Shown: piece after piece, positions 9,366 through 34,600 of the stretch
How the letters are laid out: the number at the start of each line of letters is the position of its first letter
Position numbering within the stretch: position 1 is the first letter of the stretch
IMG/VR virus record: IMGVR_UViG_3300037286_000263
Coordinates: 1-34,600 of that record
Reading direction: 5' to 3' (one strand)
Length of the DNA: 34,600 nt
DNA from: a virus
Taxonomy: Duplodnaviria > Caudoviricetes
Translations under genes and position numbers: made by a program
The notes under the pieces: model-generated
Database searches by the model: none
What the model was told of the DNA's origin: nothing
The model's input: only the letters and a program-made list of their open reading frames with translations

Positions 9366-9859
9366 TCTGTCCATCATGCGGGGCAATCGCAAGCGCGGAA
9401 GCCTGGATGAACGACTCGATCATCCGGAACTTCTTTGAAACGGCGCTGCGCCTCCCCTCGCCCGTCCAGATCCGGACGTTGCATTACCTGGGGCTCTTCC
9501 GCCAGGGGACCAGGGCGCTTCCCTGGCGGAGGGCCCTGACGCTCGCCAAGAGCCTGCGGGATCTGACCGAGCAGGAAACGGTCCACTGGCAGGGCGGCGA
9601 GACGCGTCCCGTCACGCCGGAAATCTGGGGGACGGCGATGGAAGCGACCCTGGCGAGCAACCCCAAGGGCCTGCGGAATCACAATTATCTGAGGAAATGC
9701 GCCTACGATCTGGCGGCGGAGCTGGCAGCCAGGGCCGAAGCGGACCGCGAGGCGGCCCGTAAGAGGCGGACTCGGGAAGTGGATGAGGCCCCGGCGCCGT
9801 TGTCGGAAACGGCCCGCCAGGCCATTGAGGATCTCAAGCAAAAATGGGGGCAAAAATGA
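9356..9859 (+). CDS. Conserved Mu-like hypothetical protein with N-terminal CPxCG
   Basis: MRLICPSCG, YLGLFR, LRNHNYL motifs; overlaps neighbours. Confidence 0.75.
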   Translation: MRLICPSCGAIASAEAWMNDSIIRNFFETALRLPSPVQIRTLHYLGLFRQGTRALPWRRALTLAKSLRDLTEQETVHWQGGETRPVTPEIWGTAMEATLASNPKGLRNHNYLRKCAYDLAAELAARAEADREAARKRRTREVDEAPAPLSETARQAIEDLKQKWGQK

Positions 9860-10335
9860 AGATGATCGAGCCGATCCAGGTGCAGTTGATCCATGTTCAA
9901 GCGGCTCAATTGGGCCTGTCTCGGGACGAATACGAGGCGGCCATCGGGGCGCAAACCAAAGGGAAAAAGCAGTCCAGCAAGGAGCTGACCTACTTCGAGG
10001 CGGACGCCTTGATCAATTATTTTGCATCGCTGGGCGCTAAAATCAAATCGAATTACATCCGCACCGCCGGCGCGGCCCGGCGCGCCCGGTGGCAGCCGGC
10101 AAGCGACCGCAGGCGCGCCCGGCGGAATGCGGCCAACGTGGTTGTGCTCGCATCGCCGGATCAACTGGAGATGATCGACGTCCTGGTGAAGAAGATTCCC
10201 TGGCGCTTCGAGGACGGCTATCAGCGGTGGCTGACGAAGTACATGAAGATCAAGCGGATCGTAACAATCGAGCAGGCCAGCGACACGATCGAGGGGCTGA
10301 AAAAGATGCTCGAACACGCGATGATGGGAGCATAA
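9856..10335 (+). CDS. gemA: GemA/gp16-like (DUF1018) protein
   Basis: IHVQAAQLGLSRDEY, SSKELT..EA..LI, QASDTIEGLKKM motifs; ATGA coupling; position before Mor. Confidence 0.8.
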   Translation: MKMIEPIQVQLIHVQAAQLGLSRDEYEAAIGAQTKGKKQSSKELTYFEADALINYFASLGAKIKSNYIRTAGAARRARWQPASDRRRARRNAANVVVLASPDQLEMIDVLVKKIPWRFEDGYQRWLTKYMKIKRIVTIEQASDTIEGLKKMLEHAMMGA

Positions 10336-20784: not shown

Positions 20785-21096
20785 ATGATTAGAATCAAGA
20801 GCAAGCAGAAGAACTTCCGGCGTTGCGGCATCCCCCACGACGACCGGCTGGTCGAATATCCGGACAACCGCTTTACGCCCGAGCAGCTCGCCATCCTGAA
20901 GGCTGAGCCCATGCTGATCGTCGAAGTGGTTCAAACGAAAGCGGTCGGCGATGATATCGCGGTGATGACGGTCGCGCAGATCACGGCCGAGATCGCCAGG
21001 TATCAGCCGATCGAACCGCTGAAAGGCGTGAAAAAAGCGGATCTGATTGAGATCCTAAAGTCCCACGTAACAAGTCCGATCGCGCCGAAGGAGTAA
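20785..21096 (+). CDS. Mu gp35-like (HI1506-related) protein with C-terminal helix-extension-helix motif
   Basis: FRRCG..H.......F..EQL..LKAEPML.V N-domain; MTVAQI....KKADLIEIL C-motif. Confidence 0.8.
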   Translation: MIRIKSKQKNFRRCGIPHDDRLVEYPDNRFTPEQLAILKAEPMLIVEVVQTKAVGDDIAVMTVAQITAEIARYQPIEPLKGVKKADLIEILKSHVTSPIAPKE

Positions 21097-32263: not shown

Positions 32264-33361
32264 ATGGCATCGCAAGTGATTCAATATATGGAAGAAATGG
32301 TGGGTGCTGGTCACCCGACCAAGGCGGACACGCTCAACCGCGCCCTGCTGGTGGAGCATAACGACGACGGGACGCATAAATCAGCTTTCGGCTTGTCTCA
32401 TCTACAGCAGCTCATAAACAATCTGTCCCTCACAGCGACTGTTGGTTCAAAGTCGCTGACTATAGCAGTAAAGGGCGCGGATGGGGATAACTGCTCTGCT
32501 TCCAACATCGCCACAATTGCCTTTCGTAGCGCCACCCTGACCGACGGCAAGCCAGTATTCAGGACGGTTACGGGTGCGCTTTCTGTTGTTCTCTCGCCCG
32601 GGTCCACCCTCGATTTCGGCCCCGCCGAGGCGGGACGGATCTACGTATGGGCCATCGATAATGCCGGTACGGTGGAGCTGGCCCTTTCCAGGACCGCGGA
32701 CCTTTTCCCGGAAAGCAATCTTGTTTCGACCACGGCAGAGGGAGGGGCGGGTGCGGCTGATTCCGCAGCGGTTATGTATTCCACAACGGCGCGATCGAAC
32801 GTCGCCTGTCGCTGCATCGGATATGTCGAGATCACCACGGGAGCGACGGCCGGCGAGTGGGACAATGCCGCGACGAAAATCCAGGTCATGGGGCCGGGTG
32901 TGAAGCGGACAGGCGAAATCGTTCAGGACGTGTGGCAAACGACACAATCAGGAGTGGACGCATCGACGGCTTTCCCAAACGATGGCACTATCCCGCAAAT
33001 AACGGAAGGAGACCAGGCTTTTGCCAGAACGGTCACTGCAACAAGCGCCCTCAATCCGCTGATCGTTGAATCTGTTTGTCACTTGTCTCATGGTGCCGGG
33101 TCGACCAATTGCGGGATAGCATTATTCAGGGATGCGGTTGCAAATGCCCTTGCTACCGGTGGGAACGATACCCCCGGCACGTCGCGGCTGATGATGTTCA
33201 AGTTGAACCATGTGATGATCGCCGGCACTGTCAGCGCCATAGCGTTTCAGGTGCGGTTTGGCGGCGGCGGCGGCACCGCCCGGTTGAACTACCAAGACGG
33301 TGGCACCGGTTATGGTAACAAAAATACATCTTATTTGCGGATCACGGAGGTAATGGCATAA
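32264..33361 (+). CDS. Tail fibre / receptor-binding protein
   Basis: SD AGGAGG; short N-terminal anchor ending EHNDDGTH, then Thr/Ala/Gly-rich beta domains; distal tail position. Confidence 0.75.
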   Translation: MASQVIQYMEEMVGAGHPTKADTLNRALLVEHNDDGTHKSAFGLSHLQQLINNLSLTATVGSKSLTIAVKGADGDNCSASNIATIAFRSATLTDGKPVFRTVTGALSVVLSPGSTLDFGPAEAGRIYVWAIDNAGTVELALSRTADLFPESNLVSTTAEGGAGAADSAAVMYSTTARSNVACRCIGYVEITTGATAGEWDNAATKIQVMGPGVKRTGEIVQDVWQTTQSGVDASTAFPNDGTIPQITEGDQAFARTVTATSALNPLIVESVCHLSHGAGSTNCGIALFRDAVANALATGGNDTPGTSRLMMFKLNHVMIAGTVSAIAFQVRFGGGGGTARLNYQDGGTGYGNKNTSYLRITEVMA

Positions 33362-33672
33362 TGAATATAATACGTTGTATCCAAAAAATAATCCCCGGCT
33401 GGACGGGGGCGGTTTGGGACAACTCCTACGAAGGCATCAAGCCCAACGAAACAGAAACAAGGCCCATCCCGACACTGGCAGAACTCGAAGCTGTGTGGCC
33501 CGACGTGCAAAAAGACATAGCGCTGGATGACGTAAGATCAAATCGGGCAGCCGCGTATCCCGATTTCCGGGAATACCTGGACGGCATCGTAAAGGGCGAT
33601 CAGGCACAGATCCAAAAGTATATCGACGATTGCCTGGCTGTTAAGGCCAGGTATCCCTTGCCCAAGACATAA
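33361..33672 (+). CDS. Tail fibre assembly/chaperone-like small protein
   Basis: PIPTLAELEA and RAAAYP...YLD..........CLAVKARYP motifs common in genes after fibres; TAATG coupling. Confidence 0.7.
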   Translation: MNIIRCIQKIIPGWTGAVWDNSYEGIKPNETETRPIPTLAELEAVWPDVQKDIALDDVRSNRAAAYPDFREYLDGIVKGDQAQIQKYIDDCLAVKARYPLPKT

Positions 33673-33766
33673 AAGGCGGACAGTATTCCAGGGAGCACCA
33701 CCTCCCCAGACCAGGCGATTTCGACGCCCGACGGGATAACCCGCTACCATCCGCACAGTGAAACCG
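33670..33766 (-). ncRNA. Candidate small RNA (about 95 nt, four-way junction) antisense to the methyltransferase leader
   Basis: Minus strand folds as GCGGAUGGUA / GCGGG-UUAU-CCCGU / CGGGCG-UCGAAAU-CGCCUG / G / UCUGGGGAG-GUGGUG-CUCCCUGGA / A / UACUGUCCGC then CUUUU; six G-U pairs that would be A-C mismatches on the plus strand; own promoter upstream. Confidence 0.72.
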
Positions 33767-33771
33767 CACGG

Positions 33772-33800
33772 CTTATAGCAGGGTTACTCCCATAAATCAA
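33772..33800 (-). promoter_or_regulatory. Leftward sigma70-like promoter for the candidate sRNA
   Basis: Minus strand TTGATT (33800-33795), 17 bp, extended -10 TG-C-TATAAG (33777-33772). Confidence 0.7.
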
Positions 33801-33817
33801 TTTCGGGGAGGACCACA

Positions 33818-34600
33818 ATGAACAGTTTTTTAGCGTATATGGGCGGCAAATCGTTACTGGCACACAAGATCATTCCGAAGATTCCGGAACACAAATGCTA
33901 CGTGGAAGTCTTCGCGGGCGCGGCCTGGCTGTTGTTCAAGAAAGAAGAGAACACATCGGACGTGGAGATCATCAACGACATCAACCTGGATCTGGTGACC
34001 CTGTACCGGGTGGTCAAGCACCATCTGGAAGAGTTTATCCGATATTTTAAATGGGTACTGGTTTCGCGTGATGAATTCCATCGGTTCCGCAAAGAAGTGC
34101 CGGATGCCCTGACGGACATTCAGCGGGCGGTCCGGTTCTACTATCTCCTCAAGCTGGGCTATGCGGCCAGGATCAAGAACCCGTCCTTCTCCATAGCCAC
34201 AACCGCGAAGCCCCGCCTGAACCTCCTGCGGATTGAGGAGGAGCTATCTGCGGTCCATCTTCGCCTGGCGCGGGTCTATATCGAGCATCGTTTCTATGCG
34301 GATGTCTTTGCCTATTTTGACAAGCCGGACACGTTCTTCTACATCGATCCGCCCTATTACGGCTATGAGGATTATTATGGGGACGGCTTCTTTGATCGGA
34401 CCGATTTCATGAAGCTCCGGGATATCCTGGCCGGCATTTCCGGGAAATTCATTTTGTCAATTAATGACGTGGATCATATCCGGGATCTGTTCAGGGGCTT
34501 CCACATCGAGACGGTTCCGACGTCCTATTCGGCGGCCGGGGCGAACAGAAAAAAGAAAGTGAATGAATTGTTGATCATGAATTACAAGCCGATTGGGTAA
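33818..34600 (+). CDS. dam: DNA adenine methyltransferase (D12/Dam class), in the position of Mu mom
   Basis: YMGGKS, YVEVFAGAA (motif I), INDIN, FYIDPPY (motif IV), ELLIMNY; SD GGAGG. Target specificity not determinable here. Confidence 0.94.
   Translation: MNSFLAYMGGKSLLAHKIIPKIPEHKCYVEVFAGAAWLLFKKEENTSDVEIINDINLDLVTLYRVVKHHLEEFIRYFKWVLVSRDEFHRFRKEVPDALTDIQRAVRFYYLLKLGYAARIKNPSFSIATTAKPRLNLLRIEEELSAVHLRLARVYIEHRFYADVFAYFDKPDTFFYIDPPYYGYEDYYGDGFFDRTDFMKLRDILAGISGKFILSINDVDHIRDLFRGFHIETVPTSYSAAGANRKKKVNELLIMNYKPIG

Follow-up and report, generated by a model that had tools for sequence, protein, structure and literature searches.

Temperate phages often carry orphan adenine methylases. Among the regulatory RNAs of phages and plasmids, the C4 and CI RNAs arise by processing and share the strand of their targets. 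In plasmid copy control by the IncI-alpha Inc RNA (repZ) and the pT181-type RNAs, whose sequences are unrelated to the RNA considered here, antisense binding upstream alters the downstream fold and keeps the ribosome-binding site (RBS) closed. In symE/SymR (RF01809), hok/Sok and tisB/IstR-1, a small structured RNA with a reverse promoter faces the 5′ region of a gene whose expression has to stay low, a layout likewise seen at the present locus. With respect to DNA modification, the accessible part of one report detected no in vivo activity of prophage adenine methylases and merely presumed their repression (PMC3299994), and tight repression of mom in phage Mu is described in the accessible parts of two reports (PMC3299994, PMC3378877).

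The DNA analysed here, referred to as the window, is a stretch of 34,600 nt from a Mu-like provirus record with a completeness estimate of 71%, which ends at the methylase stop. It carries Mu-like genes for the transposase, transposition ATPase, Gam, GemA, Mu portal, protease and gpT. The feature under study occupies the 145 bp separating the upstream stop (33672) from the methylase ATG (Table 1). An ankyrin-repeat protein and a DUF1883 gene lie on the minus strand next to the repressor (1-972 and 2371-2637) as possible cargo or host flank, and CTAG does not occur in the window (1-34600), with 14.5 occurrences expected from trinucleotide counts.

Table 1. Positions of the RNA element, its putative signals, the leader segments and the neighbouring genes (window numbering unless another contig is named)
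Feature	Position	Strand	Remarks
103-aa ORF, end of tail module	33361..33672	+	phrog_9114, function unassigned; stop 3 nt from the RNA closing stem
U-rich tail, putative intrinsic terminator (weak)	33666..33675	-	follows the closing stem
Four-way-junction RNA core	33676..33754	-	P1 33754-33745/33685-33676; P2 33744-33731; P3 33730-33712; P4 33710-33687
RNA 5′ tail (predicted)	33755..33765	-	length and sequence vary in homologues; inferred +1 near 33765
Extended -10-like element TGc-TATAAG	33772..33780	-	TGc 33780-33778; TATAAG 33777-33772; final T absent
-35-like element TTGATT	33795..33800	-	17-nt spacer to the -10-like element
W′, GGGAG	33691..33695	+	predicted local trap for W in the nascent mRNA (prefix folds)
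W, upstream anti-RBS CCTCCCC	33701..33707	+	pairs with the SD, 33805-33811; lies under the antisense RNA
X	33733..33746	+	pairs with Y, neutralising it; covered by the antisense RNA
Y, local anti-SD	33776..33791	+	pairs with X or the RBS; overlaps the antisense promoter
Z	33805..33820	+	Shine-Dalgarno GGGGAGG (33805-33811), spacer, ATG
D12-class N6-adenine DNA methyltransferase, 260 aa	33818..34600	+	PF02086, E 1.6e-29; phrog_56; last gene of the record
VP882 three-way element	L104 527-624; EF057797.1, about 20846-20943, minus strand		

The probable minus-strand RNA and its conservation

RNAfold reproduced exactly the cloverleaf of the original prediction, with a 10-bp closing stem (P1), arms of 5 (P2), 6 (P3) and 9 (P4) bp and 0, 0, 1 and 1 unpaired bases at the joints, and all of its coordinates were correct on re-check. 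The energy of the junction is -48.1 kcal/mol (z -4.20), and none of 200 shuffles was equally low. The 79-nt core gave -44.7 on the minus strand versus -26.6 on the plus strand, and 5 of 3454 windows of 79 nt across the prophage folded equally low. G+C-rich folds with a stability equal to that of the element were seen at 9461-9540 and 10061-10160, in the phrog_2161 ORF and gemA, probably owing to composition. The element is likely a minus-strand RNA gene giving an antisense RNA of roughly 95 nt. Its promoter-like motif, TTGATT-17-TGcTATAAG, is placed as originally predicted and is conserved, but the -10 is imperfect; similarly, the proposed U-tract stands as a conserved U-rich tail but is weak, consisting in the window of only CUUUUAUGUCUU. 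Both the antisense promoter and the terminator went unlisted when a consensus scanner was run on the window, the reasons being a -10 (TATAAG) that lacks its final T and a multibranched stem. As for candidate transcript data, seven sequencing runs shared 4-6% of words; the four examined are unstranded assembled contigs, three of them probably DNA, and the sole run recorded as RNA yielded one unstranded 151-nt contig at depth 2.

Comparison of homologues revealed that the fold is maintained by paired changes. In 24 loci found via the methylase, the core is near-identical letter for letter in 19 and divergent in 5. A 25-nt pattern spanning the 5′ strand of P1 and P2 retrieved 77 viral loci, 71 of them distinct, and alignment A2 was composed of the window and 70 distinct viral loci (71 sequences), with L053, which lacks the 3′ half, omitted. 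Pairing is retained in 96.6% of 2128 cells of A2, versus 44-50% in slid controls, and double-sided changes occur in 14 of 30 pairs (136 cells, versus 30 in shuffles). As the search pattern fixes the 5′ strand of P1 and P2, the informative arms are P3 and P4, in which double changes were found at 12 of 15 pairs. In A2, the row for the window contains the six G-U pairs that had been noted, and G-U pairs on the minus strand outnumber A-C pairs by 406 to 17, near-invariant positions contributing part of this bias; these changes and this bias uphold the claimed selection on a minus-strand RNA. A further alignment, A4, consists of the 54 best minus-strand rows (53 distinct), excluding 12 plus-strand mirror matches and 2 weak minus-strand rows; here, 97.7% of cells are paired and double changes affect 24 of 30 pairs, in an alignment fitted to the model.

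Promoter conservation was assessed in 138 distinct leaders from 184 loci, after removal of duplicates, leaders without a recognisable start and five without a -10 anchor. TTG, which was not selected for, occurs at spacer 17 in 102 of the 138 leaders and at spacer 18 in 28 more. The final T of the -10 is present in 35% of them, and since the anchor was chosen by pattern, conservation of this box is partly by construction. The distance from P1 to the -10 box is mostly 13-24 nt, with a maximum of 50, and the 9 nt after P1 contain on average 5.3 T, a control stretch having 2.5 (n=135). Promoter and terminator features on the opposite strand are thus conserved at consensus level only, and the 5′ tail and the loops of P3 and P4 vary freely. 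Covariation (71 sequences) and promoter conservation (138 leaders) are both found in homologues.

A blastn search of 50,697 phage records gave nothing beyond five chance matches of 24 nt. Genome records with the RNA motif are labelled as Syntrophales, Syntrophorhabdus, Smithella and other Deltaproteobacteria (23 of 30), Nitrospirae (6) and a Solibacteraceae bin (1). Within one carrier phylum, matches occurred in 2 of 151 sampled genomes, implying that the element is accessory rather than core. One contig (L007, 1740-1824) holds a partial second copy of the RNA, comprising the 3′ half (29 bits), about 115 nt upstream of a complete copy.

Linkage to modification genes and two forms of the junction

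The claimed link in cis to the methylase was borne out: among 92 distinct pattern-selected loci, a D12 methylase start lies downstream in 83, is cut off in 2 and is replaced by another arrangement in 7. The D12 methylase gives way to a small CxxC ORF and an N6_N4_Mtase gene in L091 and to a DAM-like-phage1+GNAT gene in L097 (1577-2884), and the genes downstream of the RNA in L065 have no Pfam match. L097 and L065 share the same integrase-like upstream context, and their differing downstream genes open with near-identical codons. L062 is apparently frameshifted, and in L125 the promoter is gone, as is the 5′ portion of the gene. In L034 and L131, the RNA and an intact promoter-like motif are present with no methylase start downstream; the RNA of L131 adjoins tRNA-Sec. 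Translational coupling with the upstream gene was considered and is not required, as the distance from the upstream stop to the stem exceeds 20 nt in 23 of 91 scored loci.

Loci were also chosen by the methylase protein (80 viral and 80 metagenome, the two sets sharing some contigs). At E <0.01, a model of the four-way form (R1) gave a match immediately before the methylase, on the opposite strand, in 30 of the 80 viral and 54 of the 80 metagenome loci, many of which overlap the training set. A model of a three-way form (R2) matched 42 of the 50 remaining viral and 11 of the 26 remaining metagenome loci, so that either form of the RNA precedes the methylase in totals of 72/80 viral and 65/80 metagenome loci. 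Neither form was found upstream of the close methylase relatives in L297, L298, L341, L286, L291, L296 and L334. The record of phage ZY1 (Bacillus-labelled, L113) has a different methylase upstream region in which the element is absent; a CTGT-rich motif at about 640-690 of this record presumably resembles an SOS box.

In named phages with a related methylase, an opposite-strand structured element precedes dam or com-dam in phiE125, B3, VP882, phiHAP-1, TJ1, MuM16-1 and S1, and further in AM106, UMP151, Aval, KP12, PhiKM and Mae-JY22. This form is a three-way junction, in which P2 is replaced by a 4-nt bulge, and 27 of its 31 pairs covary in 28 sequences. The two forms interchange before similar methylases. 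They are equivalent in layout, and shared descent is likely; R1 and R2, however, score each other's form weakly. R1 gives just 12-14 bits on B3, VP882, phiHAP-1 and TJ1, and the window element goes unrecognised by R2 (7.2 bits, E 4.1).

The absence of a com-like ORF was confirmed, with no CxxC motif in the window and none in 137 related loci within the fetched flanks; as a positive control, the same motif scan found Com in 29 of 36 three-way-type loci. The original prediction presented RNA-only control as an alternative to Com, which does not hold in general: a three-way counterpart sits upstream of com itself in B3, TJ1, UMP151 and 29 of 36 pattern-selected loci.

The mRNA leader and proposed control of the methyltransferase

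The plus-strand leader does not simply mirror the RNA, its predicted fold being different. Four segments, W, X, Y and Z, can be distinguished in it. The sequence CTCCC (33787-33791), within Y, is able to pair with the methylase SD, as originally proposed. Description of the RNA gene as self-contained proved too narrow, because the mRNA lying under the RNA itself bears the best-supported anti-RBS helix, formed by W and the SD. For 76 non-redundant leaders, cognate and non-cognate duplex energies were compared with 5000 permutations, none of which reached the cognate values of W:Z (-19.0 cognate vs -14.5 non-cognate), X:Y (-18.2 vs -16.7) or Y:Z (-10.7 vs -9.4). Measured against the three nearest relatives, W:Z is better in 52 and worse in 23 of the 76 leaders (p 8e-5), a cognate advantage is absent for X:Y (43 vs 33, p 0.63), and Y:Z falls short of significance (44 vs 30, p 0.062). 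As W:Z alone is significant in this comparison, a self-hiding RBS is well supported. The proposed X:Y pairing (-18.5, versus -7.8 for shuffled partners) draws on conservation and on recurrence with other letters in the three-way form, and Y:Z is the weakest link of the leader model. A W:RBS helix of at least 6 bp is part of the minimum-free-energy fold of 58 of 75 leaders; in some homologues, W is extended into the P4 loop or shifted to the P3 mirror. In the examples considered, P4 loop variation is largely explained by pairing with each phage's own SD-to-start spacer.

The predicted cost of opening the RBS depends on which segments are available. Its median in 76 leaders is 10.7 kcal/mol for the full leader, 9.4 kcal/mol with the antisense-covered part removed, and, with W removed, 5.8 kcal/mol when X is free and 9.2 kcal/mol when X is shuffled; in 61 of 76, the leader without W is more open, by >1 kcal/mol, than in its RNA-bound state. 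The three-way form (n=18), of unrelated sequence, shows the same order in these four states (9.6, 8.7, 5.6 and 6.8 kcal/mol). In prefix folds of the window, W:W′ and X:Y persist until the SD emerges and are then replaced by W:SD, and just 49 of 75 leaders have X:Y of at least 8 bp in the prefix fold. Leaving the open state is predicted to cost 6.7 kcal/mol for the window (median 9.6), a barrier small enough that the translatable interval may be very short. When the RNA tail/entry region and X are blocked in the window, the opening cost rises from 7.6 to 9.3 and a Y:SD hairpin forms. A scheme with an open free leader that the RNA would shut was rejected, being wrong at equilibrium, where W already closes the free leader.

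From these predictions, the antisense RNA likely helps to hold the methylase off, and the chances appear evenly balanced that it does so by refolding the mRNA leader instead of covering the RBS. The RNA leaves the SD and the start codon uncovered, so that silencing would be indirect; as X is required for the sole predicted open state and lies under the RNA, repression by refolding is favoured. In the nascent late transcript, a short local hairpin would trap W and X would hold Y, leaving the SD briefly free, and the finished leader would relax to W:SD, the off state. Prior binding of the antisense RNA would mask X and set Y free, closing the SD at once, and RNase III would probably cut the long duplex as well. 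In the lysogen, the RNA would come from a host-type promoter and silence leaky read-through, and heavy late transcription would out-titrate the RNA, permitting a limited late burst of methylase. The timing, the part of RNase III and the toxicity of the enzyme are modelled on Mu mom and type I antitoxins, as described in the accessible parts of four sources (PMC3299994, PMC3378877, PMC3874152, PMC2887945), and repression of the methylase in the lysogen, part of the original prediction, would follow the same analogy. A point counter to repression is that the RNA-bound state is slightly more open on average than the finished free leader. In L053 (1449-1780, on the L054 contig), a second copy is missing W together with the half that holds the terminator, and the methylase frame behind it is cut short at 63 codons; this joint loss is one anecdote consistent with repression.

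The same energies can be read in the opposite direction, with the RNA as an activator: the 5′ strand and loop of P4 would mimic the RBS and capture W by a loop-loop contact, leaving X:Y intact and the SD open. Even with no RNA present, the full leader is closed, and blocking the P4 mirror or the P4+P3 mirror (W) alone cuts the opening cost of the window from 7.6 to 6.1 and 5.8. Across the 138 leaders, blocking the RNA-covered part lowers the median from 11.2 to 9.5 (lower by >1 in 72, higher in 24). W:RBS is also the best-covarying helix, so that the RNA necessarily carries an RBS copy, with at least 8 perfect pairs in 46% of 76 leaders versus 8% for non-cognate pairs. Against activation, the full antisense:leader duplex is overwhelmingly favoured (-232 kcal/mol, predicted) and contains the Y:SD pairing, and with a host-type promoter the RNA would be produced in the lysogen, a state in which, to judge from Mu mom, the enzyme is expected to be off; activation is thus considered unlikely. 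It is a little harder still to credit that leader structure alone sets translation and the reverse promoter acts by transcriptional interference or plain duplex decay, X and Y having no switch role. The covariation of X:Y and Y:RBS is indeed clade-level only, the divergent Mu promoter momP2 competes with the mom promoter (PMC3378877), and EcoRI and Eco29kI are regulated by reverse promoters (PMC3874152). A covarying four-way junction is not needed for interference, however, and shuffling of X abolishes the open state (5.8 to 9.2), an equivalent helix of unrelated sequence being present in the three-way type.

Action in trans, which had been offered as an alternative from the start, finds little support. 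An RNA directed mainly at host or phage mRNAs or at a protein, in the manner of Hfq-type phage sRNAs, would suit the compact and conserved fold and the two loci, L034 and L131, that keep the promoter-like motif in front of no methylase start. VP882 has a trans-acting sRNA, VpdS (PMC12197685, PMC13603594), to which one review assigns a length of about 50 nt. Such a role is nevertheless improbable, in view of the freely variable 5′ tail and P3/P4 loops, a longest complementary match elsewhere in the prophage of 12 nt, loop variation that the cognate RBS accounts for, and the tight linkage to modification genes. The imperfect -10 and the weak U-tract might even mean that no RNA is made and that the pattern is a feature of the mRNA leader or of the DNA, which is very improbable given the bias to minus-strand G-U over A-C pairs, the conservation of a -35 that was not selected for, and the U-rich tail.

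Repression by refolding, the preferred reading, makes the 145-bp cassette a concrete model for the silence of the methylase in lysogens of Mu-like prophages that lack a Mom/Com pair, and the model is open to reporter tests in the culturable phages B3, MuM16-1, TJ1 and VP882. In its widest form, put forward tentatively and at slightly less than even confidence, the proposal is that a widespread, undescribed family of phage antisense RNAs, four-way and three-way and possibly related to SymR, operates a portable switch of four segments. This switch would time DNA-modification enzymes of at least three non-homologous kinds in temperate phages of several phyla, Mu-like and lambda-like ones among them, either with no protein regulator or one layer above Com. 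If this is true, Rfam would gain a new RNA family, and a layer of RNA control would be placed above Com.

Comparison with described RNAs

Searches against Rfam at gathering and E-value thresholds gave no family match for the element, the window or 15 related loci. The name of D12-methyl (RF02950; 64-position model, cut-off 57 bits) suggests the same gene class, and this model had no match in the record at E up to 10. The C4 RNA of P1/P7 and the CI RNA of P4 are also phage RNAs with a multi-arm fold; the C4 likeness drawn in the original prediction was not sustained, as the Rfam scan gave no C4 match, nor one to CI. Unlike C4 and CI, the window RNA has its own promoter-like motif on the opposite strand. 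ARAGORN found no tRNA gene in the window, and there was no match to RF00005. The open-licence full-text literature searched held no description of this antisense RNA family, and the text examined of PMC8541194, on MuM16-1, has nothing on the methylase of that phage. The RNA family appears real and conserved and is apparently unpublished, model scores setting it apart from SymR, D12-methyl, C4 and tRNA.

The nearest signal is SymR. The phiHAP-1 element, the best family member, scored 29.8 bits on the SymR model (E 0.085, cut-off 61), and the SymR 3′ hairpin scored 16.5 bits on the P4 part of R2 (E 0.018); this weak two-way signal is a lead only, and the window element had no match to the SymR model at E up to 10. 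SymR consists of two hairpins without a closing stem, whereas the window RNA is a closed four-way junction, and the target of SymR is symE, that of the window RNA a PF02086 DNA methylase. SymR overlaps the symE start according to the accessible part of PMC3874152, and the window RNA, in contrast, stops about 40 nt short of the SD.

Mu com-mom resembles the window in having an adenine-modifying enzyme as its last gene, a predicted RBS-hiding structure and an opposite-strand promoter. It differs in the presence of Com and in its enzyme, Mom rather than a PF02086 protein, and momP2 is described in the accessible part of PMC3378877 as a competing promoter, not as a structured-RNA gene. B3-type phages combine the two arrangements, the RNA lying upstream of com and not replacing it. 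By analogy, the mode of action of the window RNA would thus resemble that of the 5′-acting type I antitoxin RNAs, coupled with a hidden RBS like that of mom.
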